A DNA stretch of 64,000 nt, taken from IMG/VR virus record IMGVR_UViG_3300037313_000833; one strand, given 5' to 3'. The number at the start of each line of letters is the position of its first letter. Position 1 is the first letter of the stretch. Below the pieces are notes generated by a model. It searched no databases and was not told the origin of the DNA. It worked only from the letters and a program-made list of their open reading frames with translations. Made by a program: the position numbers and the translations under genes. The DNA is from a virus. Of this stretch, positions 421-62,341 are shown one piece after another.

Positions 421-3400
421 GTGAGTCAAACAATCTTTAAAGATCCAGTCGTTACATCCTCTCCGGTCCGTACTGGGACAGGCAACGGGTCCGTGCAGAT
501 TGACCGCTTGACCCATTTCACGGTCCCGCAGACCTATACCCTGACCTGTCTCGCGAAAACGCCTGACACCCTTTTCGTCGTCTCCGGTGACAAAGACGGG
601 AACGTCGGGATTGCGACCGTAGGAACCCAGTTTTTCGATCAGGATCTCAAAGTCTTTTTCACGATCACCCAAGGCTCCCAGGCGTTCGAAGTGGGCGACC
701 AGTTCGTTTTCACGGTCGGAAGCGGAACCGACCTGAACCAAGCGAACATCGACGAATACGACGAACTCCCTCAAAAGAACTTCGGCCCAGGGCTGAAGGG
801 TTTTGCGCGCGGCGATGATAACCTTCGTTTCAATGATGTCGCTGTTAAGGCCGCGAAATTTATCGATGATTTAAAATACGTCGCGCAAACCGCGGGCTCA
901 ACTGGAAACGACATCACGATCGAGTACGCTCAGACCGTTCCTGCGATCGCCGCAAGCCTTGTTCTCCAGGATCTCACCTTCACGGCCATCACCCCTGGTG
1001 CGGCTGGAAACAATTTAAATGTCCAGTACTTAGACTATACCCCCGCACAAAAAGCACGTGTAACGATTCAAAACTTGGAGTACCAAGCCGTTACCGCTGG
1101 AACTTCGGGGAACTCTATTACGGTTGCTTATACGACCGGCGGAACCGCTGGGTCGGAAGTCGTGACGGTTGTCGGAAGCGCCATTTCCGTCCAGATTCAA
1201 TCTGGAGTCTCGACGGCTGGACAAATTGCGGCCGCAATTGCTGCATTTCCTGCGGCCGCGGCGCTTGTCACGACTGCTTTTAAACCGTTGGCTGGAAACT
1301 CCAGTACGGCTCAATCCGCTCCAGTTTCCGCGACAAGCCTCACCGGGGGCTCGAATTCCATCGGTGCCGCTGGATCTGAAGTCGTCTCCGTTGTGGGGAA
1401 CGCGATCACTGTTACCCTCCAGTCTGGAACGTCAACTGCAACCCAAGTCAAAGCAGCTCTTGACGCCTCATCCGCGTTCACGGCTCTCGCATCCGTTGCG
1501 ATCAGTGGAACCGGCTCGCACGCTCAGACCTCATTTGTGACTGCTCAGAACTTCACGGGCGGCGCGAACATCAAAGGCCCTGCTGGATCTGAAGTCGTGG
1601 AAGTGACCGGATCTGCGATCAAGGTTTTCCTCGAGTCAGGAAAATCCACCTTCACTCAAGTCCGTACAGCTGTCCTCGCATCAACCCCAGCCTCGGCGCT
1701 TGTCGACTGTCAGCTCATCGGCTCAGGTTCGAACTTCGTTTATGCTCCGATGTCGGCCGTAAATCTGGTCGGCGGTCTTAATAAATTCTTTGCATTTAAT
1801 CATGATGAGTTTTCTGACGCTACGAACTTCACCGAAGGGAATGCGTCGATTCAAGCTCGCGATGCAACCCTTTCCGGAAAAGTCGAAATCTCCGGTCACA
1901 CGCATCTCTCTGATGTGCTCTCCCTTGCTGACGGAAGTTCTGGTCAGCCTATTTCGAACGTTCAGCGCGCAATCAATAGTCTCATCGGCCGTGGAAAACT
2001 TCAGCTCCATCTGAACAATGACGGAACCTTCCGATGGGATGGCTCTCAGCTTGTTCTCGCGCAGGACTTGAAAATCATGTTCCGCGACGGAACCGTTGTA
2101 AATACGATTTCTGCTGGAACCTTCTCCCTGTCTGATGGTCAAAGCTTGTACGCTTTCTTGTACGACCTTTCCAGTCAAACGCTTACGACTGCGGTCGGAT
2201 CAAGTGTCCCAGCAAACTTCCCAGCATTCCGTATCGCAACCCGCGTGGGCGATAAACTTTACTGGTTCAATAACGTTGTCTCGTATGCTTACGATGTCGG
2301 CCGAATCGGAGAAGGTGGAAATTTCCGTCAACAAATGATGACCCTTTTGACCGGCGGAGGAACTGTTTCGGTTCCATCCGGAGGCGGATCGGTTGCATGG
2401 TCAGGCGCGCTGTTCGTAAAACCGCTCGGCTCTTCAGCGCTCATCACGATCGCAACGGGTTCAGTCACCATGAACGATGACGATGTCGCGTACATCGATC
2501 TCGATGACCCGATCACAACGGCAACCAAAACCCTGACCGTTGTTCCTCGATCAACCGCAGGTTTGAACCGTCCAGACCGTCTTTGGATTTTCCATCGTGG
2601 CGGAAATCGCATTCATGTTCGCAATGGAACGGCGATCTCTCCAGGTGAAGAAACGACCATCGGCGACGCAATGTCAGACGACACTCTGACCTTCATCGGC
2701 GCGGCAAGCCGTACCGACAACGCTCCAGCATACACCACGGCAAACGGTGGATCGACTGCAAACAACTATATCGCTGACGGCGACAGCTTGACTAAAGCAG
2801 TCAAGAAACTCGACACGCAAGCGAAGACCGATGCGGACAATCTGACGACGCACGCGACTGCAACCTCCGGCGTTCACGGAGTCACGGGAAATGTTGTCGG
2901 AACAACTGACACCCAAACCCTGACGAATAAAACTTTCGATGACGCGATCACGATGAAAGAGATCGCAACCCCATCGAATCCAGCTTCCGGATACGGTAAG
3001 CTTTACCGCAAGGCTGATGGTAATCTGTATACCATCAACTCTTCTGGCACGGAAACCCAGGTCGGCACGGGCTCCGGTGGATCAGGCGCAGGAGGCGGGG
3101 CTCTTGTTAGCTTGAGTTACCGCGCGGAGTTTGCAGCTCCTCTCGATGATGCTCCGACGACTGATACCAGCGTCGACACCTCCACGGGGTACACTGACGC
3201 AAACACGTACCAGTCAACCGGCAAGCTCTATAAACTTTCTTATGATGCGACGAAGACGGTGACGACTAGCGGTACAAACTTCACGCTCTCAGGTGCTCCG
3301 GGCTTCACGATCAAGGCCGGTGACATGATCATCGTGTCCGGCGAGACTCCTAAGCGCATCACGACTGTCACGACCCAGACCACAGGTGTTTTAGAATCTG

Positions 3401-5946: not shown

Positions 5947-5948
5947 TC

Positions 5949-6494
5949 ATGAGTAAGATCATAGGAGTTCACGCGAAGTCTCCCAGCACAAATTGGACAT
6001 CATACTCATTAACAATCGGCGGAACAACGACTGCTCCGACGAAAGGAACAACGACTAGGGACTCCGCACGATGGAGACGCGTCGGTGACTCAATCGAAAT
6101 TGAGTATGATTATAAACAAACAGGCGCAGGCTCCGCAGGAAGTGGATCATATTTGTTTTCGCTTCCATCGGGAATTACCATTGATTCTTCCAAAGCTCCC
6201 TTGTCCCTCGATGGTACAGTTGAGTTCGGTGTCGCCTCATTAGGCACTGGCGCAGATGGATATGTGAGCTTTTCCAATGGTATCGGAAAGGTGATCGCGC
6301 TCAGTTCAACTACATTCTCTATTGTGCGGCAAGTTGACTCCGGCGGTAACTTTGGAGTGACCAGGGACGTGATGGGTAGCTCCGTGTTTTCGCTTTCAAA
6401 TACCTCGATCATCCTCACGGTTCGGGCCAGATTCCCAGTTGTGGGATGGTCATCGAATGACCTTTTACGTACCTCTAACGGAACCAAGGTGTAA
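5949..6494 (+). CDS. fibre-associated protein carrying the W(R/Y)RR(V/N)GDS beta-domain shared with both fibres
   Basis: ATG lies 3 nt after the fibre 1 stop. NWTSYSL...ARWRRVGDSIEIEY...LPSGITIDSSK parallels DWTSYVP...LQWRRNGGSVEVRG in fibre 1 and IWYRRVGDSLHVRG...LPAGYTLDTSKF in fibre 2. Confidence 0.8.
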   Translation: MSKIIGVHAKSPSTNWTSYSLTIGGTTTAPTKGTTTRDSARWRRVGDSIEIEYDYKQTGAGSAGSGSYLFSLPSGITIDSSKAPLSLDGTVEFGVASLGTGADGYVSFSNGIGKVIALSSTTFSIVRQVDSGGNFGVTRDVMGSSVFSLSNTSIILTVRARFPVVGWSSNDLLRTSNGTKV

Positions 6495-6503
6495 CCGGAC
6501 CCT

Positions 6504-6523
6504 GAGTATATATCTAGTAGGAG
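6504..6523 (+). promoter_or_regulatory. copy 2 of the GAGTATATATCTAGTAGGAG motif
   Basis: Identical to 374-393. The AGGAG ends 7 nt before ATG 6530. Confidence 0.6.
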
Positions 6524-6529
6524 TTCCGG

Positions 6530-8749
6530 ATGAGCGTCGTAAAAACACTTAATAAAAACGCAACCGTTAAACAGCAGACCTCGGCTGATTTACCTAGTAA
6601 TCCGGTCAAGTATATTACTCAGCGCGGAAGCCAGACCTCGACTGACGGTCAGACGGTCATCAATCTAGGGTTTGCGGTTGACCTTAGTATCAAAGACGCT
6701 TTCCTTCTGATCGTGGACGGTAAGGTTCTTCTTGAAGGATCTGGAAACGACTACACTTTTACCTCCGTTCAATCGAACAATACTTCGGCTCAAGTCACGC
6801 TAACGCAATCCTTGACCGTCGGACTCAACATTTGTTACATCCTTCTCGGCGCCCTTGTTCAGACCGAACCATCGGTGAATACTCTTGCCGCAACCGTTGC
6901 AAGCCTTTCTAGTGGGAGCGGAACCGGCGGGATCAACTACATAACGGCTTACGATGCCGAAAAAACCGTTGCAGGCTGGAACAGATTTCAAGACGCGGCC
7001 GCGGCAACGCCTACCGACGGCACCGGGACTCTGACCGCGAATAACATCACGCTCACTCAGAACACTACTACTCCTCTTCGCGGAACGGCCGATTTTAAGA
7101 TCACAAAGGATGCTGTCAACCGTCAAGGTGAAGGAGTCTCTTACGACTTCACGATTGACCGTGCGGATCAAGCGAAACCTCTCACGATCACATTCGATTA
7201 TTCGGGCTCCGGTGTCACGTGGGCGACCTCGACAACCTCCATCGGTGATATACAAGTTTGGATTTACGATAAGGATGCAGCTCAACTTATTCAGCCAGCA
7301 GCGTATACGCTAGATGGATCAAAAAAGTTCAAAGGTGTTTTTCAAACCTCCGCATCAAGTTTGAACTATCGCCTGATTTTATTCGTCGGCGGAACGACAG
7401 CGACTTCCTGGACTTTCAATTTCGACAATGTAAAAGTAGGTCCAGATTATGCCTTGCTAGGCTGTCCAGTAACGGACTGGAAAAACGATCTCGCTTGGAC
7501 TTTTGGATCTGGTTACGCTGTTTCAAGTTATGGAATCTGGTATCGTCGCGTAGGGGATTCCTTACACGTTCGCGGATGGTTTCAATCCGGTACAGTATCA
7601 GCAGGAAGTCTTGGGTACATTCAGCTTCCTGCTGGCTATACACTTGACACATCTAAGTTTCCAAGCGGATCAAACGTACATAGAGTCGGCTTAGCAAGCC
7701 AACTGACCGCGGCGACAAACGCACTAGGTAGCTCGTCTCTTTATCAAGTCATATTCTATGACGGCTCTACAAATAATCAATTGTTCTTTGGATGGCAGGC
7801 GTCTAGCGCCCAGTACCAAAAAACCAACGCAAACAGTCTGATCAATTCCAATGAAAATTGTGCGTTTGAATTCAGCGTTCCTATAACAGGCTGGGGCTCG
7901 ACGACTCAGATGTCAAACGACACGGATACCCGTCTCGTTTCTTTTTACGCGCAAAACAATTCTAACCAGTCTCTTGCAACCGGCGTAAACCTTCAGTTTC
8001 CAAACAACATACAAGACTCGCATGGCGCTTGGAATGGAACGGATACCTATACTGTTCCAGTTCCAGGTGACTACTATGTGACAGGCTCCTTCAACATCAG
8101 CACACCTTCCGCTGGCGACGTTTACGTTTATAAAAATGGTGTCATGTTCATGCACCTAACAAGCTGGGTTTCAAACTCAAACTGTTACAACGGCGGAGCA
8201 TTATTGAGAGGTCTTAAGGCTGGCGATACTTTGAAGCTTCAGCATTCAGTATCGAGCGCAACATTTGTCGCAAACTCCGGATTGTATTTCTGGCTTTCGA
8301 TTTTCAGGTTGTCCGGACCTTCAGCGATCGCCGCGACTGAAGCCGTTAATGCAAAATACTATTGCACTGGGGTAGGCACTGCGAATGCTACTACTCCGAT
8401 CAATTTTGACGCTAAAGTTTACGACTCTCATGGGTTCGTTACCACTGGATCGGGCTGGAAAGCGACTGCGCCTGTCGCTGGAAAATACTCGATCAAGGTA
8501 CTGGTAAACCCTAACGTTGCCCCCGGCGGATCTGTCTATATGGACATTTATGTTAACGGGGTGCTGTATGAACATTTTGGATATGTCCCTGCGTCTTCGG
8601 GAAATCCGCTAAATTGCTCAACAACTATACCGCTTCTGGCTGGAGATACCGTTCAGATTAGAACAGGAAACTCATCACTCACCTACTTTGGAACCGCTTC
8701 GCTAGCGTCATTCCCGACAAAGATTGAGATTGAAAAGGTGGGTAACTGA
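6530..8749 (+). CDS. second tail fibre / receptor-binding protein (739 aa) with a CBM-like module and two C1q/TNF-like domains
   Basis: GINYITAYDAEK...NRQGEGVSYDFTIDR...WTFNFDNVKVGP is paralogous to fibre 1. The C-terminus carries TYTVPVPGDYYV...LKAGDTLKL and WKATAPVAGKYSI...LLAGDTVQI. Confidence 0.9.
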   Translation: MSVVKTLNKNATVKQQTSADLPSNPVKYITQRGSQTSTDGQTVINLGFAVDLSIKDAFLLIVDGKVLLEGSGNDYTFTSVQSNNTSAQVTLTQSLTVGLNICYILLGALVQTEPSVNTLAATVASLSSGSGTGGINYITAYDAEKTVAGWNRFQDAAAATPTDGTGTLTANNITLTQNTTTPLRGTADFKITKDAVNRQGEGVSYDFTIDRADQAKPLTITFDYSGSGVTWATSTTSIGDIQVWIYDKDAAQLIQPAAYTLDGSKKFKGVFQTSASSLNYRLILFVGGTTATSWTFNFDNVKVGPDYALLGCPVTDWKNDLAWTFGSGYAVSSYGIWYRRVGDSLHVRGWFQSGTVSAGSLGYIQLPAGYTLDTSKFPSGSNVHRVGLASQLTAATNALGSSSLYQVIFYDGSTNNQLFFGWQASSAQYQKTNANSLINSNENCAFEFSVPITGWGSTTQMSNDTDTRLVSFYAQNNSNQSLATGVNLQFPNNIQDSHGAWNGTDTYTVPVPGDYYVTGSFNISTPSAGDVYVYKNGVMFMHLTSWVSNSNCYNGGALLRGLKAGDTLKLQHSVSSATFVANSGLYFWLSIFRLSGPSAIAATEAVNAKYYCTGVGTANATTPINFDAKVYDSHGFVTTGSGWKATAPVAGKYSIKVLVNPNVAPGGSVYMDIYVNGVLYEHFGYVPASSGNPLNCSTTIPLLAGDTVQIRTGNSSLTYFGTASLASFPTKIEIEKVGN
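8333..8358 (+). repeat. 26-bp stretch identical to 5524-5549
   Basis: Same 26-mer, at the equivalent inter-domain position of fibre 2. Confidence 0.9.
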
Positions 8750-8751
8750 TC

Positions 8752-9201
8752 ATGGCGAAAACTAATCTAAATTTATCCATCAGAAGCGAGATATGGGTCA
8801 CATCTGCAAACGGATACGGCGCAACCAACACGAAAGTTCGTCGATGGACAACGGTTCAAAAAAACGTGGGAAGTGACATCACGTACACTGACGATGCGAA
8901 CTTAGGTGGAAAGTTCACCGTCAACACGGACGGTATTTATAACATTAGCTATGTGGATTCAATGGGCGCCGGTACGTTTCTAGGTATCGTTAAAAACGGA
9001 ACTCAAGGAACAACAAACGTCGGCCCGACGATCACTTCTTCAACGCTCCTAACGATTCAGCAGATCGTTGCAAACGCGATAGGATCAACCTCGGTGACAG
9101 TTAATCTGTCAGCAGGTGACTATGTTTGGGGACAAACAGAAGGATCAGCTACCACGGCCGGTACTATTCAAATGTTCAGAATCGTCAAGGTCAATAAGTA
9201 A
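8752..9201 (+). CDS. stand-alone C1q/TNF-like domain protein (149 aa)
   Basis: GGKFTVNTDGIYNISY...VKNGTQ...VNLSAGDYVWGQTEG. ATG lies 3 nt after the fibre 2 stop. Confidence 0.8.
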   Translation: MAKTNLNLSIRSEIWVTSANGYGATNTKVRRWTTVQKNVGSDITYTDDANLGGKFTVNTDGIYNISYVDSMGAGTFLGIVKNGTQGTTNVGPTITSSTLLTIQQIVANAIGSTSVTVNLSAGDYVWGQTEGSATTAGTIQMFRIVKVNK

Positions 9202-9213
9202 CCGAGGTTCCCG

Positions 9214-12200
9214 ATGTCTTGCGGATCAGGCGGTAAGAAAAGATATTTTTACACCGGGAATCAGGTCGGCGATCTAAATCAGGTCGGCGACTACAATTTC
9301 GTTGCCGGTGGACCTGCTGGCTCAGGACTCTCAGCTGGAACCGTACAGGGTGTTTTCTTTGCGAACACCATGACTCGCCGTCCATGGGAGCGTCAGGACG
9401 CCGTGTTCGATGACTCCCTTCTCGATGCAACCTATCCAGTCATCAACCTTCAATGGTTTGCAGAAATCGAACTCACTCCTGAAGTTGTTTTTCGCGTATC
9501 CGATCGCTCATTCTATGTCCAGGACAAGGATGGGAACAATCGTTATTACGATGCGCGCGTTCAATCCGGTCCTTCCATTCAAGTGACGACAGGTGAATGG
9601 CTTGCGAATAACTTTCAAGTCTCAAACTTCAACCTCGAGCTGAACAATCGCGATGGCTTCTTTAACCAGTACCTTCCAGGCGGAGCAAACTTCCGTCAAT
9701 GGTCGGGTGCAAAAGTCACAATCAAAATCGGATTCTCTGAGAAATACGATAACTATCTCTCAATTTTCTCAGGACAGATCACGTCAAAAGGCGGTCTATC
9801 CACGACCCGCGACACGATCAGCATTCAGGTTTACGATCGTCTTGATCCAGATGAGTCGACGTTCCCAGCGAATACCTATTCGTCTGACCAGTATCCTGAC
9901 ATCGACAGTGATTCTTCCGGAAAGTCCGTCCCTCTCGTTTATGGCGACTGGTCTGAAAACGTTCCAGCTTGGGGCTCCATTCCTGCAACGTGCGTGAACT
10001 CAGGCGAGGAAGACCCTACCGAGTACGTCTTCAAGGTTTCAGATCTCGAGCTTGAATCCATTGATTCCGTATGGCTCCATCGTGGCAACAATGCTGCTGA
10101 TAAGCCTGACGGTCCTATTCCAATCGATACGAACTGTTACGTCACAGATCTTGCACAAGGCCTATTTAAAATCCCGACAGGTACTCCAGTCTTTCAACAA
10201 CCTTTCATCCTTGTTGACCGCGGTAAGGCGGGTCCAGGCTCAGGTGTTGGGTTCATTACGTCTGACGGCTCGATCAACTTCCTCGAGCAAGGTGTCCGCG
10301 TAGGCGACCGCACCCAGCCATCCACTGAGCGCACGGCTTTCGTAACCTATGAGAACATCAAGTTCCAAGCCCAGAAGACCGGCCCGGTGCCTCGGAATGG
10401 AAGCCTTGGAAATGGAATCCGAGTTCAATACGTTCTCCTCACGCCGTACACCGACCCGAAGCTTCCGCTCGATCTCGTTGTGACCGTTTCGGGAACTGAC
10501 ATTACGGTCGGTATCCCCTCACGTGATCCAGGCACGGGACTTGTATACGGCGCCCACACTGCAAACGACATCAAAGCCGCGATCGCTGCAAACCCAGACG
10601 CCGCGGCTCTCGTTCAATGCGTGATCGTTGGAACCGTTCCTTCCGGATACCCAGCGGGAACGACAGTGGGTCAAGTTGTTCAAACCGTTCCATCCGGATG
10701 GCAAACCTTGTCCGGAGGCGTGGATGATGACGGCAACGGTATCATCACATCCGTCACAAACTTCCAGCTCACGGTTACGGGCTCAACGACCTATAACGAA
10801 GGCGACGAGTACACGATTGAGACCATTCAATATGCGTTCGTGAAAAATGACAAGTTCTCCGTCGTCTGTAAAGGAAAGCCGCTGAAGCTTCTCTCCCTCA
10901 CCCGTCTCTCAGACGTGTCAGCGGAGTTCACGGCTCCAAGAGCTGTCGCCCTGATCCGCGGGGAAGACACCTACTTCGTGTCTGACGACGCCTCAAGAAA
11001 AATTTATCAGCTCGGCTTTGATGGAGAGCTTGTCTCTTCGATCACTTACGACACGATCGATCCAGCGCTGGAACAGATCTCAGGCATGTCCTTTGGACTT
11101 GATGAGCGTCTTTGGATTACGGACCCAATCCAGTCAAAAATCTATCTCATCAACCCGGTCTCCGGTGAGGTGGGATATAGCCTCATGACTGGAACGATCA
11201 CCGGGATCAGCTCAAACCTCCCTTACCTGACTGGTATCTCCGTTCAACCGGACAATAAAATCTGGATCGCTGATAAAGATTCAACGACGATTTATCTCGT
11301 TGACGTGTTCGGCGGGATCAATCCAAACGTCGTGACGACCTTTGATTCGTCGGCGTTTGATCCTAACGCATCAGAAGTCACGGACCTCTCTTGGGATGAC
11401 ACCCGCACTGAGCTTGTGGTCGTTGACCGTGGCGCCCAGCAGATCTATAGGCTGACCGCTTCTGGCGATTACATCAGCGCTTTCTCGTACCTCGACATCG
11501 CGGATGACATCACGTACCCAGCCTCAATCGCCGCGGCTCAAGATGGAACGATTTTCCTCCTCGATGGTGATTCGGGAACGATTTACAACTGGAATGAAGC
11601 AAGTGACGCGAACACGAATCCATGCTGGATTGCGCGCGATATGCTTCAAAAGTTCAATGGTCTTAACTATTCGGACTTCGATCTGTCCTGGAACGCGACC
11701 GCGGTTCAGATGTACGGATATAAAACCCGCTGTTACATCAGCTCCTCGACAGCGCTTGTGACCTACATCAATAAGCTCCTGTCGCAATTCAACGTCGTAT
11801 TCTATGAACGCTTTCTGAAGTTCTCCCTCTTCTGGATTGAGTTCCAAAACTTCCGCACGACTGGAAAGAGAATCACGGAAGCTGACATCCAGATGGACAT
11901 GTTCAAGCCATCGAAGGAAACGAACCAATATTTCAACTCGATGACCGCAACCTTCGGTAAAGATGAGTTCACGGGTAAGTCCCAGACCTCGGACACGTAC
12001 ATCTCCCCATCAGGCGTTTCGTTCGCAGGTGAAGAGATCAACCGTAAGTTCGACATGCCAAACGTCTATCGTCGCGATGAGCTTGATAAACTCGTCCCAC
12101 TCCTGATCCGTCTATCGGTTCCTGAGCCTGAGTTTATTGACGTGACGTTCGGATTCCGCGTGATCCGCTCTCAGATCCACGACTTCATCAACATCGATTT

Positions 12201-12900
12201 CGATCAGGACTTCAATTATCGCACCCTTCGTTTTGAAGGCGGGAAGCGCTTTAAGAACGTTCCATCCATGGTTCGTCAGATCCGTTACAACCTGTCCACG
12301 ATGACGGTCCAGATGAAGCTGTGGTCGCTTGGAACAACTCCATTCGGTGCCTATGACCCAGTCGGAAACCACGTCGGCGGAGAAAATGACCCTGTCGTTT
12401 TGACCAGCGTTGGACGCCTTGGACGTTTCAGTCCTACCGGAATCATCACCGGGGTCGGCTCCAATTATGTCGACATCCAGGATCAGGACGCGATGAACGC
12501 TGAAAACCTTGAGACGGATGCCGCGGGCCTTGCCTACCAGCCCGGATTCAAGCTTGCCGTGATCGATCCGGTGACTCAGGCTCAGATCCAGCTCCTCACG
12601 ATCGACAGCGTCTCAGGCTCTCGGATCACGTTCGAAGAGACCTTGGACCCAGCTGTCGTCGCAACGGTCATCGGCGGATCAGGCTTCCCTGAAGGCGGGA
12701 CTTACCTCGAGTACGCAAAATATACGGACGCTGTCCAAGCTCAGCGCAACGTGTTCGGTTTCATTACCCGTCCGACAACCTCGTACCCAATCTCCAAAAC
12801 GCAGGAGCTTGAAGAGCAACGCGGCGGACTCCACTCGTTTGACGACGGCGGAAAACCTTACGTGTTCTATCCAGAAGGGTTCACCTACGTCGGGGAGTGA
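9214..12900 (+). CDS. large tail/baseplate-type protein (1228 aa) with one fibre-type repeat and an NHL-like beta-propeller
   Basis: Long ORF inside the tail module. It has five repeats of the type xKIYLINPVSGEV / TTIYLVDVFGG / QQIYRLTASGDY, plus LVVTVSGTDITVGI...ANDIKAAIAANPDAAALV resembling the fibre 1 repeats. Confidence 0.85.
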   Translation: MSCGSGGKKRYFYTGNQVGDLNQVGDYNFVAGGPAGSGLSAGTVQGVFFANTMTRRPWERQDAVFDDSLLDATYPVINLQWFAEIELTPEVVFRVSDRSFYVQDKDGNNRYYDARVQSGPSIQVTTGEWLANNFQVSNFNLELNNRDGFFNQYLPGGANFRQWSGAKVTIKIGFSEKYDNYLSIFSGQITSKGGLSTTRDTISIQVYDRLDPDESTFPANTYSSDQYPDIDSDSSGKSVPLVYGDWSENVPAWGSIPATCVNSGEEDPTEYVFKVSDLELESIDSVWLHRGNNAADKPDGPIPIDTNCYVTDLAQGLFKIPTGTPVFQQPFILVDRGKAGPGSGVGFITSDGSINFLEQGVRVGDRTQPSTERTAFVTYENIKFQAQKTGPVPRNGSLGNGIRVQYVLLTPYTDPKLPLDLVVTVSGTDITVGIPSRDPGTGLVYGAHTANDIKAAIAANPDAAALVQCVIVGTVPSGYPAGTTVGQVVQTVPSGWQTLSGGVDDDGNGIITSVTNFQLTVTGSTTYNEGDEYTIETIQYAFVKNDKFSVVCKGKPLKLLSLTRLSDVSAEFTAPRAVALIRGEDTYFVSDDASRKIYQLGFDGELVSSITYDTIDPALEQISGMSFGLDERLWITDPIQSKIYLINPVSGEVGYSLMTGTITGISSNLPYLTGISVQPDNKIWIADKDSTTIYLVDVFGGINPNVVTTFDSSAFDPNASEVTDLSWDDTRTELVVVDRGAQQIYRLTASGDYISAFSYLDIADDITYPASIAAAQDGTIFLLDGDSGTIYNWNEASDANTNPCWIARDMLQKFNGLNYSDFDLSWNATAVQMYGYKTRCYISSSTALVTYINKLLSQFNVVFYERFLKFSLFWIEFQNFRTTGKRITEADIQMDMFKPSKETNQYFNSMTATFGKDEFTGKSQTSDTYISPSGVSFAGEEINRKFDMPNVYRRDELDKLVPLLIRLSVPEPEFIDVTFGFRVIRSQIHDFINIDFDQDFNYRTLRFEGGKRFKNVPSMVRQIRYNLSTMTVQMKLWSLGTTPFGAYDPVGNHVGGENDPVVLTSVGRLGRFSPTGIITGVGSNYVDIQDQDAMNAENLETDAAGLAYQPGFKLAVIDPVTQAQIQLLTIDSVSGSRITFEETLDPAVVATVIGGSGFPEGGTYLEYAKYTDAVQAQRNVFGFITRPTTSYPISKTQELEEQRGGLHSFDDGGKPYVFYPEGFTYVGE

Positions 12901-12912
12901 GTATAAAAGAGT

Positions 12913-13431
12913 ATGGGCGTCACAACTCCAAAAACAGTAAAAAAGTTTCGAGACCTGGAAGCCGACTTCGGAACCTCTCAGGCTCAGGCGCTTTTCCAGA
13001 AAGCCGCTCAGACTGTCAATTATATCAACGCATGCGTCCCGGTCGGAAAAATCCTGCTTTTTCATGCCACGCAAGACAATCTCCCTGAAGGCATCGATAC
13101 CCGGTACTGGCAAAAAATGGACGGCTCAGCCGTTACAAACCCTTTGTCTCCCCTGTTCGGACAAACCCTCCCAGACCTCCGCAAACGGTTCTGGCGCCAT
13201 CCAACGACGGGCGAGACGGTCCACACCTTGGGCGGAGCGAATACGATCGATCTGACCCATAACCATGGCGGATACACGGGATATACGGACGACCGTGACG
13301 ACTTTCAGATGGATAACGGGGAAGAAAAACACGAAGCAAACGTTCATCGCCATTCCATTGCAAACGGTTCCGGTGTCGTTTCCACGATCCCGCAATACCG
13401 TGAACTTCAAGTCTGGGTGAGGATCGTATGA
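12913..13431 (+). CDS. tail-collar-domain fibre protein, paralogue 1
   Basis: VPVGKILLF...W..MDGS...SPLFGQTLPDLRKRF...GGANTIDLTHNHGG matches the phage tail collar pattern (G.I..F...W..CDG...LPDLRGR...H.H). Confidence 0.8.
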   Translation: MGVTTPKTVKKFRDLEADFGTSQAQALFQKAAQTVNYINACVPVGKILLFHATQDNLPEGIDTRYWQKMDGSAVTNPLSPLFGQTLPDLRKRFWRHPTTGETVHTLGGANTIDLTHNHGGYTGYTDDRDDFQMDNGEEKHEANVHRHSIANGSGVVSTIPQYRELQVWVRIV

Positions 13432-13928
13432 GCTTTGTACCTCTTGACGACAACTTAGATCAATACGGCGGGATCATCTCGGTTGAGTTCTTCTCAACCC
13501 TGACGGCAAACCTGAACTATCTGATGGAATCTGTTCCAGTCGGCGAGATCAGCCCTTTTTTCATCATCGATGGTGTAAACGAACCAGATCCACGCTTTTG
13601 GCAAGAATGTGACGGATCTCCGATCGTCGATCAGACTTCCCCACTCCGCGGCTATAACGCTCCTGACATGACTCAGAACGGCGGCCTCTATCTCAAAGGC
13701 GCTGACATTCTCCCGAATGCTGGTCAAGTCGCAGGTGCGAACACGAAAAACCTAGCCCACTCCCACGGCGGCAACACCCAGAACTTCCACATCAACAACG
13801 ATGCCGATACCGATGACGACCGTTGGAGCGCGCAAAACGATCACAGCCACACGATCTCCACAGATCTTGGGGTAACGAACTTTGAACCTGAGCGCGTGCT
13901 CTTGAGACATTTTATCAAGATCAATTGA
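13428..13928 (+). CDS. tail-collar-domain fibre protein, paralogue 2
   Basis: VPVGEISPFF...WQECDGSPI...SPLRGYNAPDM...NLAHSHGG. ATGA overlap with the previous gene. Confidence 0.8.
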   Translation: MSFVPLDDNLDQYGGIISVEFFSTLTANLNYLMESVPVGEISPFFIIDGVNEPDPRFWQECDGSPIVDQTSPLRGYNAPDMTQNGGLYLKGADILPNAGQVAGANTKNLAHSHGGNTQNFHINNDADTDDDRWSAQNDHSHTISTDLGVTNFEPERVLLRHFIKIN

Positions 13929-13934
13929 GGATTT

Positions 13935-14465
13935 ATGGCTGTCACCTATCCAAACAAACTCCCAATTCTGAACGACGAAGAGTACTCCCTCGAGCGCCCG
14001 GTATCAACTCAGGCCGCGCTCAAGCTCATTCGCGCATGCAACATGATGCAAAAGCTTGTTCCAATCGGCGAGCTTAAGGCCATGGCTGTCAATAACCAAG
14101 GTGTAAAGGCACCGAACGGAGATCTCTTTCAGTATTGCGACGGCGGAGAAATCACGAACGGGCTCTCCCCACTCAGGTCCACCGGACTGACTCAGCGCTA
14201 TACTCCTGACATGAAGGATCGTTTCCCTCGAGGTGCCGACGCAAGTACGGTTCTCGGAAGTGAGGCGGGAGGAAACGCAACCGTTGATCTCTCCCACACC
14301 CACACGACCGGAACGAATGAACCTCTCCGCGGGTCCGATGGAGAAGAGGGCGATGAACAAGCTCCCGGTGTCGATCATAATCACGGAGTGAATTCTGATC
14401 TCTCGAGTACCGAACCTTTGAATCCAGCCCATCTCAAAGTCGTTTATTACATGAAAGTGAGCTAA
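13935..14465 (+). CDS. tail-collar-domain fibre protein, paralogue 3
   Basis: VPIGELKAM...FQYCDGGEI...SPLRS...TPDMKDRFPRG...VDLSHTHT. Confidence 0.8.
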   Translation: MAVTYPNKLPILNDEEYSLERPVSTQAALKLIRACNMMQKLVPIGELKAMAVNNQGVKAPNGDLFQYCDGGEITNGLSPLRSTGLTQRYTPDMKDRFPRGADASTVLGSEAGGNATVDLSHTHTTGTNEPLRGSDGEEGDEQAPGVDHNHGVNSDLSSTEPLNPAHLKVVYYMKVS

Positions 14466-14902: not shown

Positions 14903-15137
14903 TCACTAGCCCGATCATCGTAACAATGATCAAAAACATAATCCCACACCATGCGACCTTGATGGTATCGAAGACTGGTTTCAACTGACTCTCCGGAATC
15001 AGTCTTCGTCCTCCACTCGGATACTCTACAATCGCCCAACGCTCCGACGCCATATAACGAAACCCGCGGATGACACCCACGGGCTGTTTCGTCTTTCCCC
15101 ATTTCAGTCGGACACAGTCGAGGGCTTTAAACTTCAT
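14829..15137 (-). CDS. small protein with a C-terminal transmembrane segment
   Basis: ATGA-coupled to the helicase gene stop. Hydrophobic VAWCGIMFLIIVTMIGLVI. The 3' end overlaps the convergent M15 gene by 74 nt. Confidence 0.5.
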   Translation of the reverse strand: MKFKALDCVRLKWGKTKQPVGVIRGFRYMASERWAIVEYPSGGRRLIPESQLKPVFDTIKVAWCGIMFLIIVTMIGLVIKLSLSGNASQGASSSLLQNVDRL

Positions 15138-16510
15138 AATTCAAGCTTTGCTGGAACGATTCCGTATTCTTCTTTTAGGTACTTCACTTGAGCTTTGAAA
15201 TGCTCCAAGGTCCATTTATGGGACGGATCGCGGAACAGGATGAGAACCCCACGCTCTTTCGTCGGATGAAGCCTGAAGAGGCGTCCCACGTTTTGCATGA
15301 ACTGGTTCTTTGACTTTCCTCCACCTGCAAGGACACAGTATTCGGTCGGGCGCGTATCGATACCCTCACCGATGACTGAAGTTCCCATCAGAACTTCTTC
15401 GATCCGTTCATTGAAAGCTGAAATTAAACTCTCATTGTTGTCGTTCTCACCCTTTGCGAAGGGGACGCGCACGCCGCGCTTCTGAAGCTCGAACTCAATT
15501 TTCAATCCATGCTCGACTTGCTTCAATAAAACGAGAGTCGACTTGTTACCGTTTTTGAGATTTTCGATCAGATCGCAGATGATCTGGTTACGATCTGCGC
15601 GATCGACGACAAGTTCTTTGTAAACCGAATGCCATTTCTCGCCCGAACATTTAAGCTTAACCGCGGGGAGATCAATGTAAAAGGCGTCGAATGGACAGAC
15701 GTACCCTTTGTCGAGAGCCGTCTTGTATGGAATCTGATAAATGACTTTTGAGAGCACCGACTCGAGAAGGAGGCGCTCTTCGGACTTTGAGCGGAACGGC
15801 GTCGCGGTGAGCCCGAATTTAAAATAAACGTCCTTCCAGGCTTTCATATTCAGCTCGCGGTAAGACTTCGCGCCTGAGTGATGGAACTCATCGATCAAAA
15901 CGAGATCGATTCCAGGGACCGGACACTTCGGATCAAGCTGGTCAATGTTCTCAACCGTGAATAAATGCCTCGCGCGTCCGCGGTAAAGAGGGCCGACCAT
16001 CTCATCTCCGAAAACCTTTTTCAGATCCTCGGTGAGCTGCTTCTTCAGGCCCAAGCTTGGAACGACGATCATGGATCTAACCTGAAAGCGATCCAGGATT
16101 AGGGCGGCTATTAAGCTCTTACCGCACCCGGTAGGCGCAACGACGATCCCGCGGCTCTCTTGGAATGCGACTTCTGGCGCTTCGGCTTGCTCAGGACGGG
16201 GAGTTTTGTCCAAACCGACCATCAGTGACCCGGCACCTTCCGCGCGCGTCTTAGGCCGAATGCGCGTGTCCTGGACGGTATATTCAATCCCATTGGACTT
16301 TAGGGTCTCCTCGACAAGATAAAGAAGCCCTGTCGGAAAGTTCCCGCTCTTATCGATCAGGTATTTCCGGACGGAGCCGAATCCAGAAAATCGAGAACGC
16401 GTCGTCTCGGTATAAGACAACGCGTTTCGAAGAAGTTTAAACTGCTCAGTTAGGAACCCCACGACTGTACTCGAGGAGTTCCCGATTCTTATCGTTAGTT
16501 GAGAGCCCAA
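15134..16510 (-). CDS. superfamily 2 DEAD/DEAH-type DNA helicase (UvsW-like architecture)
   Basis: APTGCGKS (Walker A), DEFHH (motif II), LTATP, GEGIDT, QNVGRLFR. No ATG is available. TTG at 16510 has GGAGCGGAGG 9 nt upstream; the track's alternative TTG at 16576 lacks an SD. Confidence 0.85.
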   Translation of the reverse strand: MGSQLTIRIGNSSSTVVGFLTEQFKLLRNALSYTETTRSRFSGFGSVRKYLIDKSGNFPTGLLYLVEETLKSNGIEYTVQDTRIRPKTRAEGAGSLMVGLDKTPRPEQAEAPEVAFQESRGIVVAPTGCGKSLIAALILDRFQVRSMIVVPSLGLKKQLTEDLKKVFGDEMVGPLYRGRARHLFTVENIDQLDPKCPVPGIDLVLIDEFHHSGAKSYRELNMKAWKDVYFKFGLTATPFRSKSEERLLLESVLSKVIYQIPYKTALDKGYVCPFDAFYIDLPAVKLKCSGEKWHSVYKELVVDRADRNQIICDLIENLKNGNKSTLVLLKQVEHGLKIEFELQKRGVRVPFAKGENDNNESLISAFNERIEEVLMGTSVIGEGIDTRPTEYCVLAGGGKSKNQFMQNVGRLFRLHPTKERGVLILFRDPSHKWTLEHFKAQVKYLKEEYGIVPAKLEL

Positions 16511-17040
16511 GACTGAGAACCTCCGCTCCACGATATAGTTCGGATGCCGTTGGAGGTTCCCACAGAGAAAACGCAATTCGTTCCGTCTGTCGTCGTGTAC
16601 CCAACGCCGTCAAAGATTTCCGAGAGACGGGTGTTCTTTCCATTCTTGTCGTCAGAGAAGCTCGCAATGAGGCTTCCGTCCGCGAGACGCAGAAAAATTT
16701 CATCTTGAGAGCTTTGGTTTCCGCAAGGATTGACGATCCCCATGATCGCGTAGGCGGTTTGAACTGGGACGCCGTCTTTTCCGTTCTGTCCCGGAGCGCC
16801 ATTCGAAATCAATACCGCACCATTCGCGCAAGTGATTAAGGCTCCGCCGTAAGGTAATACCGCATCGCCCGGAAGAATAATTTGTTGTGTGCATCCGACG
16901 CCGTCGTTCCCAGCAGTGCCGACAGGGCCTTGCGGACCTGCTGGACCCTGTGGGCCCGGAACCTGTTCAACTTTGCCGCATCCAGCGAGGATGCATGCCA
17001 TAATAATACAAATGACTGCTTTCAACATACGTTCAACCAT
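16495..17040 (-). CDS. lipoprotein with collagen-like G-X-Y repeats
   Basis: Signal peptide with lipobox ILAGC. GPQGPAGPQGPVGTAGNDG and GAPGQNGKDG runs. AAGGAG lies 8 nt upstream of the ATG. Confidence 0.8.
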   Translation of the reverse strand: MVERMLKAVICIIMACILAGCGKVEQVPGPQGPAGPQGPVGTAGNDGVGCTQQIILPGDAVLPYGGALITCANGAVLISNGAPGQNGKDGVPVQTAYAIMGIVNPCGNQSSQDEIFLRLADGSLIASFSDDKNGKNTRLSEIFDGVGYTTTDGTNCVFSVGTSNGIRTISWSGGSQSWALN

Positions 17041-17052: not shown

Positions 17053-17523
17053 TCATTGAAAAAGCGAGCCCCTTGTGGGGCGCGCATGATAAATAGTCCA
17101 CCTCAACTCAACTGCGTCCTCGACCGGGAAAGGACGGCTCTCGTACTGCGAGCGGTCTAGTACATGTTGGGAGTGATGCCAGTACCCGATACTGATCTCG
17201 GGTGTGACTCTCACGCCTAGATTCAACTGGAGTCCGACTGCGCGGTATTGCGCGCCCGTCGTAAGGCTCTCAACCGTTGAATCAAAATAACCTGCTTTGA
17301 AGAGATCGATGTTCGTTTGAAGGTTCAAGGCCTCTTTCGCGGACTCCGGATAAATCAGGAGGGGCCTATTGTTCTCATTGAGCCACGCATAGTTTCTGTA
17401 AGTCAGGGTCAGCTCATCAAGCTTTACCACATCCGCTTTCGCGTAGTGAGCTATGAGGATCGAAGCAAGTCCGATCAGTGCGCAGATCAAAGAGGCCCTT
17501 TTATGCTTTGCGTCAACCTTCAT
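17053..17523 (-). CDS. secreted, beta-strand-rich (outer-membrane-like) protein
   Basis: N-terminal signal peptide ...LIAHYAKA/DV. Alternating hydrophobic pattern LQLNLGVRVTPEISIGYW. C-terminus ...GSLFQ. Confidence 0.7.
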   Translation of the reverse strand: MKVDAKHKRASLICALIGLASILIAHYAKADVVKLDELTLTYRNYAWLNENNRPLLIYPESAKEALNLQTNIDLFKAGYFDSTVESLTTGAQYRAVGLQLNLGVRVTPEISIGYWHHSQHVLDRSQYESRPFPVEDAVELRWTIYHARPTRGSLFQ

Positions 17524-17540
17524 ATTTTCAGCCTACACGT

Positions 17541-17556
17541 GCGGTAAGCCTTAACG
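17541..17556 (+). promoter_or_regulatory. GCGGTAAGCCTTAACG element facing into the ORF-poor region
   Basis: Exact consensus copy, 18 nt past the start of the divergent gene at 17523. Confidence 0.5.
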
Positions 17557-17585
17557 CAAGTATTTTTTAACTCACTGTGTCAATT

Positions 17586-17598
17586 ATTTCTTACCGCC
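17586..17598 (-). promoter_or_regulatory. GGCGGTAAGAAATAA element on the minus strand, upstream of the minus-strand cassette
   Basis: The reverse complement reads GGCGGTAAGAAATAA, matching 18277-18290 on the + strand. It lies about 65-75 nt upstream of ATG 17523. Confidence 0.45.
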
Positions 17599-18069
17599 TC
17601 TCAAGGCAAGCCTTCGGCATTGAGGCTTTGCCAGCCTCTCACCGGGACACATTATTAAAGTTTTGAACGTAAAATCTTAAGAAGAGATTTTTAGTTAAAA
17701 CTTAAGGCCGAATATAATTGGGCCCTTCTGACTGATTTAGTCAGATAATGTGCGGTTGCGTTTTGCGACGGTAGGATCTTTGTCATCTCTGTCTGGACAT
17801 CACCACACGGAATCCATCCGATTAGGCTTTGTCTCCCGGTGCTTCCGACACCGTGCTGTTCGACGCGAGAGAACCCGATGAAAGAACTCGCTTGTCGAGA
17901 TGACCGATCATTCCCGCGAATACTCGTCAAGTGAAAAGTGAAACCGTCCAGGGTATGAAGACTCGGGTCTCCATAGCCATCCCTGCTCTCCCTCAAGCCT
18001 GTTTCAATCGAGTTGAGAGGTTCAACGGTTTCTGACAAGGGCTCCCGCATACGCTTTAGCAGTATCCCC

Positions 18070-18115
18070 GGACCCCATGGCTTTAGAGCTTGTGACTCTT
18101 GGGGGTCCATTTTTT
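18070..18115 (+). terminator. intrinsic terminator
   Basis: GGACCCC (18070-76) pairs with GGGGTCC (18102-08). An inner AGAG/CTCT helix is present. T6 run at 18110-15. Confidence 0.6.
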
Positions 18116-18219
18116 CACTCACCTGAGAGACCTTTTTTCGGGACAAAAGTATCCCGGCGCACCCTGGGCGCGCGCCATCTAACGCATGGTCTACTGATTC
18201 GATGGAGAGGACTAACCTC

Positions 18220-18336
18220 ATGATGCATGAAAGTGTGCGCGCAATAAAGCGTACCGTCAATAAAAATTCTCCCGGTGCGGTAAGAAATACCGACAAAATA
18301 GTTGTTGCAGCTTCTCGGACACTGTGTCAGCATTGA
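18220..18336 (+). CDS. possible 38-aa basic peptide
   Basis: GGAGAGG lies 10 nt upstream of ATGATG. The ORF runs through the 18277 motif copy and is below the track's size cutoff. Confidence 0.25.
   Translation: MMHESVRAIKRTVNKNSPGAVRNTDKIVVAASRTLCQH
18277..18290 (+). promoter_or_regulatory. GCGGTAAGAAATAC element upstream of the 18376 operon
   Basis: TCTCCCGGTGCGGTAAG (18267-83) is identical to 50226-42. Confidence 0.45.
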
Positions 18337-18375
18337 ATTCTATAGTGCGTTCCTCCAAGACGGAGAAGAGAGGCG

Positions 18376-18786
18376 ATGACGATGACGACAGGTTCAAACG
18401 GGGATGGACTCAACTTAGAGCAATACAAGCTCGACCTTACGCAGGTAACAGTCAAAACTGTTTTTGACGTGTACGCCGAGGAGAAGCGTAAGTATGGTGA
18501 ACTATTCGCGAAAGAGCTGTTACTCGGAATCATCGCCTCTCTAATCTGTACGACGATGTATCACTCGCTCACCGAACCTACGGCTGACCGGGAACCCGTC
18601 GAGGGCGAGGATCAAGAAGGATACGAGATGACACGCGACTCCTTCTTGGAAATGCGAGAAGCCATTGAGAACACTGTGTCGTCAGCGTTTACCGGCGCTG
18701 TCAACTTGTGGAATCCGGATGGAAGAAATCCGGAGTATTGTTGTGAAATCGCTCCAGTCCCGGAGCCCGGAAAGTTCGAACACTGA
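18376..18786 (+). CDS. hypothetical protein
   Basis: GGAGAAGAGAGG upstream; first gene after the ORF-poor region. Confidence 0.65.
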   Translation: MTMTTGSNGDGLNLEQYKLDLTQVTVKTVFDVYAEEKRKYGELFAKELLLGIIASLICTTMYHSLTEPTADREPVEGEDQEGYEMTRDSFLEMREAIENTVSSAFTGAVNLWNPDGRNPEYCCEIAPVPEPGKFEH

Positions 18787-18804: not shown

Positions 18805-19026
18805 ATGAAGCTGAAGAGGAATCAAAAGACGGCACGTTTTGGATGGAGCCTGCACATTCGTCGTGAAGGTGAAACAAAATTCGAACGCGTAGGTGAAAAC
18901 TTTGTATCAAGACACCTCGCTGATCAGCACCGTCAGCGCTACTATCCGACGGCCGCGGCGGCAAGGATTATGGGCATTCGTGCAAACGTGAAGCCCTTAA
19001 CTGCAACCCGTGAAGGTGACAAATGA
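18805..19026 (+). CDS. hypothetical basic protein
   Basis: AAGGAGAGAG upstream; coupled to the next gene by ATGA. Confidence 0.6.
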   Translation: MKLKRNQKTARFGWSLHIRREGETKFERVGENFVSRHLADQHRQRYYPTAAAARIMGIRANVKPLTATREGDK

Positions 19027-19415
19027 GATTTACGAAAAAAACTCAATACGGAATTATGTTCACGCTGCATCTCGCACGCGTGGGAAAAACGGGAACCCGT
19101 CAAGCTTCAAAAGAGCTTTCGATCTCCCCGACCTTCCTTGATCACGTCGTCATGGACCTCCGTCAAGCCGGAGTCATCGATGTGAAGAAAGGTCCAGGCG
19201 GAGGAGCGACACTTCGGAAGGATGCAACCCTTCTTGATGTCGTTGCAGCTCTTGAGAAGGACGTGATCCTGAACGATGAAGACGTGCGGTTTTATGAAGC
19301 AGGTGCGAGCGAAACGCACAAAAAATCGCTGCTCTTCTTGGACATGGCGGCCTCTTCGATGAAGCACCTTCTGTCCCAAACCATTAAAGAGTTTGCGACA
19401 AAGAGCGTGTTATGA
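19023..19415 (+). CDS. Rrf2-family (IscR/BadM-like) winged-helix transcriptional regulator
   Basis: MRFTKKTQYGIMFTLHLA...ISPTFLDHVVMDLRQAGVIDVKKGPGGGATL...LLDVVAALE fits the Rrf2 N-terminal pattern. Confidence 0.75.
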   Translation: MRFTKKTQYGIMFTLHLARVGKTGTRQASKELSISPTFLDHVVMDLRQAGVIDVKKGPGGGATLRKDATLLDVVAALEKDVILNDEDVRFYEAGASETHKKSLLFLDMAASSMKHLLSQTIKEFATKSVL

Positions 19416-50709: not shown

Positions 50710-51079
50710 ACCAAGTTCCGACAGGCACCCGCTGAAAGTCTCGGATAAAAGTTATCGGTCTGAGAGTCTGTCGGTTAAGTTCCAATACCCTGACCCAAAG
50801 GATGCAAAGTAAGAGTCGAAATGGGGTAACGCCCGGACTCCCAAACGGTCGCGAGTAGGTGCATGGTGCGGAAGTCGAAAACCTGGACACTAAAGCAGGT
50901 GGGTAGTAGTCGCCCTGTACGCGCCTTTCCGGTTGGGCGCAAGAGATTGCAAACTGGACCCGGCGGGGGATAACCCGTAAAGGAGAGGGCTTAGCGGCCC
51001 CGGTGAAAAGGCGAAAGGCTCGATGCATAGGGCCCTAGCAACGGTTCCGAATGGAGCCTCCCACTCCGCCGGTTCATAT
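50710..51079 (+). ncRNA. candidate structured RNA upstream of the tRNA (unclassified)
   Basis: 370 nt, GC-rich, with no credible ORF. Helices at 50718-24/50768-74 and 50921-25/50936-40. Direct repeats AAGTTCC x2 and AGTCGAAA x2. Confidence 0.25.
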
Positions 51080-51155
51080 GTTGAGGTAGCTCAGCGAAGA
51101 GCGCCGGGATTCCAGCCCGGAGGTCGTGTGGTTCAAGTCCACACCCTCAACTCCA
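51080..51155 (+). tRNA. tRNA-Gly (anticodon UCC), slightly non-canonical
   Basis: Acceptor GTTGAGG/CCTCAAC. U8-A9. D arm GCTC-AGCGAA-GAGC. Anticodon arm CCGGG-AUUCCAG-CCCGG with U33 and A37. T arm GTGTGG-TTCAAGT-CCACAC. Discriminator U plus an encoded CCA. Confidence 0.75.
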
Positions 51156-51272
51156 ATTTCGAACCGGCTCTCAGGAGTACCGGGCGGTCCGAGAAGGCCG
51201 GGTTGTCGCAAGACGCCCCTCGGGAAGCGAACTGGGCGCGAACGTGGCGTTTGGGACTCCTCGGTTTTATAG

Positions 51273-51302: not shown

Positions 51303-51320
51303 CAGATCAGGGAGGAACGC

Positions 51321-62263: not shown

Positions 62264-62292
62264 TCACGTTTCACGCTCAGAACGTGATCATG

Positions 62293-62330: not shown

Positions 62331-62341
62331 AGACCCCCGGT

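Follow-up and report, generated by a model that had tools for sequence, protein, structure and literature searches.

Several leader transcripts depend on translation. In the c4/icd/ant leader of phage P1, translation of icd prevents Rho-dependent termination; classical attenuator leader peptides and the hok/mok mRNAs, with their long-range pairing between 5' and 3' regions, are further examples. Dual-function RNAs such as SgrS/SgrT, RNAIII/hld and SR1/SR1P carry a short peptide whose sequence is conserved. Here we describe a locus in the IMG/VR virus record IMGVR_UViG_3300037313_000833, of which a stretch of 64,000 nucleotides (nt), called the window, was analysed. Within 17524-18375 lies what is very probably a conserved structured RNA element encoded on the minus strand, with a core of ~510 nt (17614-18125) that extends from a first helix to the distal strand of a long-range pseudoknot and contains an embedded open reading frame (ORF). 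The window covers most of an ~83.8-kb phage-like contig (Logan SRR35147159_5970; the Joint Genome Institute copy has 83,922 bp), and its genes include those for a terminase, a family-A DNA polymerase, a primase-helicase, SbcCD, a RecA-like protein and a ribonucleotide reductase.

ROOL, GOLLD and OLE are large ornate RNAs of bacteria and phages with structures from cryogenic electron microscopy (PMC12286853). Like them, the element measures 500-600 nt, folds into many helices with long-range pairing and invariant loops, and has an unknown biochemical role; like many ROOL and GOLLD copies, it is phage-borne. Unlike them, it is not located beside tRNA genes, the only tRNA gene being 33 kb away; it appears to stand first in an operon, within a divergent control region, its sequence includes an open frame that is maintained, and it has no sequence or structure match to any of the three. 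A first-pass annotation made from the letters of the window had pointed to ROOL and GOLLD without claiming homology, and the covariance-model scan with Rfam 15 gave no family match: the whole window had none at the gathering score (ROOL, GOLLD, HEARO and OLE included), region 17300-18600 gave only two chance matches to snoRNA models at expectation values (E) up to 10, and five related loci gave none at E up to 1. No transfer-messenger or tRNA-like RNA was detected at the element; in the window ARAGORN finds only the tRNA-Gly at 51080-51155. Two candidates were rejected. The plus-strand CGACAGAGAAACCGGC resembles conserved region V (CR-V) of RNase P RNA, but an Rfam RNase P match and a CR-I-like block were lacking and the strand was wrong; a CsrB-like sponge was dismissed since the GGA motifs are not in loops. 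As judged from sequence and predicted fold, the element is a new family among the known large structured RNAs of phages and bacteria, with the unusual property of an apparently translated frame.

No other part of the window lacking a coding-like ORF is as long as 17524-18375 (852 nt), as had been noted in the first-pass annotation; the next longest have 649 nt (62264-62912, with a CTGCAAAAC tandem repeat at 62777-62795) and 611 nt (50710-51320, with the tRNA-Gly(UCC) at 51080-51155). An ORF was considered coding-like if it had at least 50 amino acids (aa) and phage-like codon usage, measured as log-odds trained on twelve long ORFs. All six frames of the stretch score negative. It is situated between two divergent units, a minus-strand cassette and a plus-strand operon starting at 18376. 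A blastn search of the window region revealed no resemblance to GenBank phages at the DNA level, nor did one with the conserved core of the related locus L004. The two genes directly flanking the stretch had each no detectable homologue except itself, and the UvsW-like helicase of the minus-strand cassette is only ~25 % identical to UvsW-type helicases of cultured phages. More than 500 helicase homologues were present, many on contigs of 80-89 kb, and eleven of them were looked up, yielding fourteen new loci in uncultured relatives, numbered with the prefix L. Every new locus that includes the gap had the same order of Rrf2 operon, gap, gene of the 156-aa protein family and helicase gene, and the gap at the equivalent place measured 530-1400 nt.

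Three helicase clades carry the element. Clade 1 comprises the window with L003, L004/L005, L006 and L134, whose helicases are 60-73 % identical to that of the window, clade 2 consists of L137 and L143, and L135 represents a third clade. The clade-1 gap is alignable along ~550 nt with 175 invariant columns. Among L003, L004, L006 and L134 it forms the best-conserved 300 nt of the 6-kb neighbourhood, with an identity of 0.77-0.86 versus 0.5-0.8 for the helicase gene and ~0.7 for the Rrf2 gene; none of its indels (13, 4 and 1 nt) has a length divisible by three. Searches of IMG/VR with four window proteins found no close relatives, and a scan with a helicase profile only distant phages of 55-60 kb (38-49 % identity) that had no nhmmer match to the element. 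Pattern scans gave one viral and 46 metagenome loci for AGAGAANCCGNNGAAAGAACT, all chance matches by nhmmer, no viral and two genome loci for CCCGCTGACGNNNTCGCAGTTTC, and no matches for a clade-2 pattern. The gap of L139 had no recognisable element. Two members of another helicase clade, L142 (2760-3466) and L144 (3367-3900), have in the same syntenic gap a conserved sequence that is different or much diverged. It contains GAGTTTCTTGC(A/G)CTCTTTCTCA, reminiscent of the signature loop described below, and folds with a z score of about -5.4 on both strands, so that the strand test is uninformative; this sequence may be a diverged or replaced element.

The RNA is supported by compensatory base changes, a check that had been named in the first-pass annotation. 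In the alignment of the five clade-1 phages (A5; minus sense, pseudoknot included) 92.7 % of the cells are paired, and 53 of the 110 pairs changed on both sides, compared to 18.4 +/- 3.4 in shuffled alignments, none of 500 reaching 53. Controls with the pairing partners slid by 1-3 columns had at most 12 such pairs. RNAalifold predicted 111-113 consensus pairs on either strand, 41-50 of them with compensatory double changes, and against column-shuffled alignments the minus-sense clade-1 fold has a z score of -8.7. Clade 2, whose two members are 80 % identical, independently presented 20 compensatory pairs and a z score of -6.3. A homologous covarying structure was thus observed in eight loci from three helicase clades. 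Four helices (helix 4, helix 7, the stem of the signature hairpin and the X-Y helix) are intact in all eight despite differing sequence, each occurring in four to six sequence versions.

Two domains of several helices each, a hairpin whose loop is conserved and the X-Y pseudoknot make up the element; all its parts are given for the minus strand. Domain A (17923-18125) is closed by helix 1 (18112-18125 with 17923-17937), which has a compensatory change in 7 of 12 pairs and ten further cells with G·U in the minus sense. Inside follow helix 2 with helix 3 (18070-18108), the helix 4/5 hairpin (18038-18069; helix 4 occurs in several sequence versions), helix 6 with a compensatory change in five of eight pairs, helix 7 and the hairpin of helices 9-11. 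Helix 2 is paired in 100 % of the cells, and five of its seven pairs changed on both sides. Helix 7 (18015-18019 with 17986-17990) was found as CCUUC/GAAGG, CUCUC/GAGAG, UCUAC/GUAGA and UCGCC/GGCGG. The loop closed by helix 7 contains the X strand (17991-18001), and its partner, the Y strand (17614-17625), lies ~380 nt downstream within the conserved 3' block (17614-17644); hence the X-Y helix of ~11 bp is a long-range pseudoknot. Its two strands read GGGCAAUGCGG/CCGCAUUGCCC in most of clade 1, GGGCACUGCGG/CCGCAGUGCCC in L004, GGCUUGAGG/CCUCAAUGCC in the window, GGCCAUAGG/CCUAUGGCC in L137 and L143 and GCCAUAGGG/CCCUAUGGC in L135, and within clade 1 98.1 % of the cells are paired. The 3' block, YCYGGUG..AAAGCC..GCC.GA.GUGUAYC, is common to the clades.

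Domain B (17768-17917; helices 12-21 of the model) has three closing helices around a junction with the signature hairpin and a covarying hairpin at 17833-17854. The signature hairpin (17866-17890) has a covarying closing stem, present in the six versions GCGAG/CUCGC, ACAG/CUGU, GCAG/CUGU (with G·U), CGCAG/CUGCG, CGAGAG/CUCUCG and CUCGAG/CUCGAG, and a nearly invariant, pyrimidine-rich loop: GUUCUUUCAUCGGGUUCUCU in the window, UUCUUUCGCCGGUUUCU in its clade-1 relatives, UUCUUCGCCGAGUUCU in L137 and UUCUUUUUGAAUUUCU in L135. For a kissing contact between this loop and the Shine-Dalgarno (SD)-like region, the complementarity is good in L004 and L006 but poor in the window, L003 and L134. The domain-B covariance model (R1) scored 93-146 bits in the five clade-1 loci and found a single copy within the window. 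With default filters it matched clade 1 only; with the filters off, a weak, marginal syntenic match appeared in L135 (E = 0.18). Domain B and the 3' block are connected by a variable AT-rich linker (17645-17767), poorly alignable yet AT-rich in clade 1 and in L135. The local hairpins listed in the first-pass annotation are present (17662-17700, 17729-17745 and 17836-17853), and the linker holds hairpins of this list together with the stop codon of the embedded ORF.

On the basis of four independent tests we favour the minus strand for the RNA, which would then point toward the cassette of the 156-aa protein and helicase genes. Sixty pairs are predicted on both strands; in 12 cells they are G·U in the minus sense, which would be A·C in the plus sense, versus three with G·U in the plus sense. 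The four cross-clade helices have seven G·U and no A·C cells in the minus sense. The consensus energy of clade 1 is -101.6 kcal/mol on the minus and -83.1 kcal/mol on the plus strand (z scores -8.7 and -5.9; structure conservation index 0.56 and 0.48), a preference that holds although the plus strand is richer in G and U. For clade 2 the values are -147.9 and -106.4 kcal/mol with z scores of -6.3 and -1.9. Most of the strand-specific covariation falls in helices predicted on the minus strand only, among them helices 1 and 6.

The first-pass annotation had proposed a different transcript, a non-coding RNA of ~560 nt on the plus strand, from the motif at 17541 to a hairpin with a run of six T that closes it at 18115. 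Its general idea of a large structured RNA is borne out by a conserved, covariation-supported element without Rfam match, its strand and borders are not. The hairpin arms GGACCCC (18070-18076) and GGGGTCC (18102-18108) and the T-run (18110-18115) exist, and the plus-strand consensus fold of clade 1 also exceeds its controls with 41 covarying pairs and a z score of -5.9. But the T-run is absent beside helix 2 in L003, L004, L006 and L134; the supposed terminator stem is helix 2 with helix 3 inside, of which a simple scan picks up only the inner part, and in the minus sense the T-run is an A-run between an SD-like element and an ATG. Every strand test favours the minus strand. Region 17541-18115 itself folds better than dinucleotide shuffles on both strands (z = -3.25 for plus, -4.43 for minus). 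The consensus motif has its sole exact copy in the 16-mer at 17541, but it is palindromic and gives no inherent direction, it is positioned 18 nt before a minus-strand start codon, and upstream of it on the plus strand there is no -35 element. A plus-strand RNA of this extent is therefore highly improbable.

The second property of the element is its open frame. In the window the embedded ORF (17691-18110, minus strand, 139 codons) begins with ATG and is preceded by the SD-like AGGTGA (18119-18124) inside helix 1; the 201-aa ORF of the first-pass annotation, with TTG at 18296, and a public 189-aa gene call extend this frame. A frame of 112-172 codons is open on the RNA strand in every member. 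In clade 1 one frame is free of stops over ~430-520 alignment columns, while the other two have 5-9 stops each; with the variable sites permuted, the probability of finding no stop is 0.001-0.011 per sequence. Compared with dinucleotide shuffles, the length of the longest ORF has a P of 0.009-0.019 in clade 1, 0.001 in L135 (172 codons) and 0.05-0.10 in the GC-rich clade 2, versus 0.2-0.95 on the antisense strand, L137 excepted. The start codon occupies the same column in four of the five clade-1 members (ATG, GTG, TTG and TTG), with purines of the GAGGAG or AGGTGA type 8 nt upstream of this column, and in L135 an ATG follows 6 nt after the -10 element. A start codon with a putative ribosome-binding site is present in the window, L004, L006, L134 and L135, but not in every member. 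In all members the ORF ends in the AT-rich linker.

These observations would also fit an ordinary small protein gene of 139-201 aa on the minus strand that evolves very fast, the structure of its mRNA being incidental. Gene callers did report the frame in the window (L001:9316-9885, corresponding to window 17691-18260, 189 aa), in L134 (4324-4746, 140 aa) and in L135 (3558-4076, 172 aa), it is open throughout the family, and SD-like purines with a start codon occur in four of five clade-1 members. The substitution pattern argues otherwise. Mismatches are flat across the codon positions, e.g., [20, 28, 18], [41, 40, 45], [25, 24, 24] and [9, 21, 8], and 16-37 % of the single-nucleotide differences are synonymous. 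The amino-acid identity of 0.52-0.63 is about the value expected for non-coding DNA with a nucleotide identity of 0.70-0.78, and agrees roughly with a prediction from the cubed nucleotide identity. The phages differ in which of two frames they use for the most conserved block, the invariant loop: L004, L134 and L135 encode AVLSPVSL there, and the window, L003 and L006 encode SSFAGFSV. Around this block the frame is restored by two 1-nt indels that are separated by 32 nt. By BLASTP the products of the window and L134 are unrelated (E = 6), and six versions of the ORF had no match in Pfam and PHROG. Among 5.8 billion proteins the window ORF retrieved only itself, a result shared by the real neighbouring 136-aa gene. 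The codon usage of the 201-aa ORF scores -0.18 bits per codon compared to +0.06 to +0.31 for the flanking genes, in agreement with the un-phage-like composition reported in the first-pass annotation; its dismissal of the ORF came too quickly, since the frame is kept open in all members. Basicity of the peptide (isoelectric point 10-11.7) was rejected as a signal because the same basicity is seen in the other frames and the value for the window version is 8.0. Together with the excess of compensatory pairs far over the controls, this makes a fast-evolving protein gene improbable. In their substitution pattern, the called hypothetical proteins of 140-189 aa do not evolve as protein genes, and the simplest reading is that the open frame, i.e., the act of translation, is selected and the peptide is not. 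A structured RNA with a translatable frame resembles SgrS/SgrT, RNAIII/hld and SR1/SR1P, with the difference that the frame is long and unconstrained in sequence.

Both borders of the RNA region carry palindromic sites. GCGGTAAG occurs 28 times in the window at an expectation of 1.2, and none of 100 shuffles reached 28. The form GCGGTAAGCCTTAACG is one arm-biased version of the imperfect palindrome CGGTAAG-NN-CTTACCG, and thus the motif has no direction of its own. The palindrome is 24-fold over-represented, mostly on the plus strand and in intergenic positions, several copies containing the stop codon of the upstream gene; sites include 20719, 25392, 27487, 35329, 51286, 54530, 55327, 55924, 56277, 60232 and 62342. 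At several plus-strand genes (51286, 54530, 55327 and 55924) it is found as TTGACA-N7-GCGGTAAGCCTTAACAT, with the motif between TTGACA and TAACAT, which is an operator position. Near the element, the operator-type site GCGGTAAGCCTTAACGC (17541-17557) precedes the minus-strand 156-aa gene, whose start (17523) is 18 nt away, and palindromic sites of differing sequence occupy the equivalent position in L003, L004, L006 and L134. The divergent GCGGTAAGAAATA copies of the first-pass annotation are real, at 17585-17597 and 18277-18289, 13 nt long and 100 % complementary. The first is a minus-strand half-site with TTGACA (17577-17582) after it, immediately downstream of the RNA's 3' block, the second belongs to the palindromic site GCGGTAAGAAATACCG (18277-18292), which separates the RNA region from the plus-strand operon; in the relatives the equivalent of the latter abuts a TTGACA that faces the RNA. 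We read the flanking CGGTAAG-NN-CTTACCG sites as putative DNA operators of divergent promoters, not as parts of the RNA, and their regulator is possibly the syntenic Rrf2-family protein encoded at 19023-19415. Facing the RNA are promoter-like elements: TTGACA-N18/19 followed by TATAAG in L004, by TATATA in L003 and by TATAAA in L006, and, with an operator half-site in the spacer, TTGTGC-N18-TATAGT in L135. In the window GATACT (18148-18153, minus strand), which aligns in A5 with the conserved GTATAAR of the relatives, is a low-confidence candidate for the -10 element.

Our tentative reading, to which we give somewhat less than even confidence with the mechanism included, is that the pseudoknotted minus-strand RNA of ~510-560 nt represents the structured, translated head of the leftward operon. 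Transcription would run leftward from the divergent control region toward the genes of the 156-aa protein, the collagen-like lipoprotein and the UvsW-like helicase. In clade 1 the SD-like purines are part of helix 1 and the start codon stands at the foot of helix 2, so fold and translation would compete; the folded state with X-Y formed and the translation of the embedded frame would be mutually exclusive. Ribosomes that enter would have to proceed to the AT-rich linker; at a premature stop, translation would no longer be coupled to transcription, and polarity or decay would reduce the downstream expression. Counter-selection of premature stops that uncouple ribosomes from polymerase may account for an open frame whose peptide drifts. 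The fold would determine the share of transcription and translation that continues into the cassette. The presumed order of promoter, structured RNA with SD and start buried in helices, and operon is like that of the P1 icd, attenuator and hok/mok leaders, as would be a selection for translation as such, whatever the peptide, and a long-range pairing that locks the fold. In contrast to these leaders the element is several times larger (135-170 codons, ~510 nt), neither an alternative terminator/antiterminator structure nor an antisense partner was found, and the start is not conserved in every member.

Several points weigh against this reading. The evidence comprises eight loci of three clades, and the alignments across clades were partly fitted by hand. 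At the shared column L003 has no start codon, a convincing SD is lacking in the clade-2 ORFs of L137 and L143, a compact pseudoknotted fold is unexpected for a translated message, and no alternative terminator/antiterminator pair was detected. The promoter of the RNA in the window is obscured by an insertion of ~95 nt (18176-18270) that is not present in L003, L004 and L006. It separates the RNA from the divergent control region and holds the GC-rich palindrome GGCGCGCGCC and a minus-strand TTGACG (18256-18261); a minus-strand terminator-like hairpin (18155-18177) is located at it. All RNA-facing promoter-like elements fail a strict sigma-70 scan, lacking T at position 6 of the -10 element or having a weak -35 element, and count only as supporting evidence. 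In L004 a good sigma-70-like promoter, ATGACA-N16-TAAAAT (6793-6820; 10 of 12 positions), directly follows the 3' block and precedes the 163-aa gene, with an operator palindrome just downstream, and hence the cassette may not depend on read-through.

The last observation bears on another reading, an independent large ornate RNA that acts in trans, comparable to ROOL, GOLLD and OLE and expressed early from its own promoter. Such an RNA would act on a host or phage target or assemble with itself, and the open frame would be a by-product or translated only occasionally. Size, multi-domain fold, pseudoknot and invariant loops are typical of this type, the strongest conservation is found in loops and not in any reading frame, and L004 has, besides the separate promoter for the next gene, a weak terminator-like hairpin with a U-rich tail right after the 3' block. 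On the other hand, an untranslated RNA does not need a frame that is kept open across three clades. Scans for a strong intrinsic terminator after the RNA on its own strand found none, and none is clearly common to the family; a target or partner protein was not identified. We consider a free RNA somewhat unlikely. A new class of large pseudoknotted phage RNA that needs translation to work, a "translated ornate RNA" heading an early operon, is possible but doubtful. The passage of ribosomes would here remodel or protect the fold, and the frame of ~140 codons would be selected only for its openness.

Finally, the transcript might belong to a replication origin in the style of ColE1 RNA II or T4 oriF/oriG. 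In the AT-rich stretch it would remain as a persistent RNA-DNA hybrid from which the leading strand is primed, and the neighbouring UvsW-like helicase would later remove the R-loops. A folded transcript of ~550 nt with a constitutive-type promoter and a downstream AT-rich stretch matches these systems in layout, and the phage encodes a family-A polymerase and a primase-helicase and has the UvsW-like helicase in the same operon. The GC skew, suggested in the first-pass annotation as a check for an origin, is consistent with this in the window and varies among the relatives. The cumulative G-C curve of the window has its global minimum at 18183, the plus-strand structural genes at 421-14465 being negative and the plus-strand genes right of 18376 mostly positive; as the former are plus-strand genes with negative skew, gene orientation does not explain the change of sign. 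Minima in or near the gap were also observed in L004 (6706) and L006 (3836), but those of L003 and L134 are 2 kb off and those of L135, L137 and L139 elsewhere. Sequence similarity to the ColE1 and T4 elements is absent and the RNA-DNA hybrid is hypothetical here; no iterons or tandem repeats were found in the region and no dispersed repeat family beyond the operator motif, and the RNA is not consistently G-rich. The Y strand is located beyond the AT-rich stretch, so the fold spans it, which counts against an origin. An open frame is unexpected for a primer RNA, and primer RNAs are not known to retain one. An origin is accordingly quite unlikely.

The genes on both sides define the setting in which the element would act. 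On the minus strand follow the gene of the 156-aa protein with a signal peptide and a conserved HHSQH(V/M)LD motif (17053-17523), that of a collagen-repeat lipoprotein with the lipobox LAGC (16495-17040) and, in the same leftward cassette, the UvsW-like helicase gene (15134-16462); a 102-aa ORF is also part of the cassette. The 156-aa protein and the collagen-like lipoprotein, encoded just downstream of the RNA, appear to form an envelope-directed early cassette in an operon common with the helicase. The plus-strand operon from 18376 encodes a 136-aa protein, a 73-aa protein, the Rrf2-family regulator (19023-19415) and further genes.

The element occurs in at least three clades of a group of uncultured phages of ~80-89 kb. 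Its setting is well defined, an early region of divergent transcription under operator control, and the same helicase-containing cassette always follows downstream. For the annotation of these phages, the calls of a "hypothetical protein" of 140-189 aa at this place have to be corrected, as they are not protein-like in evolution. Strong selection on structure together with selection on an open frame, without selection on the peptide, is an unusual combination. It is rare to find a large structured RNA without known function, and every new family so far has led to new biology.

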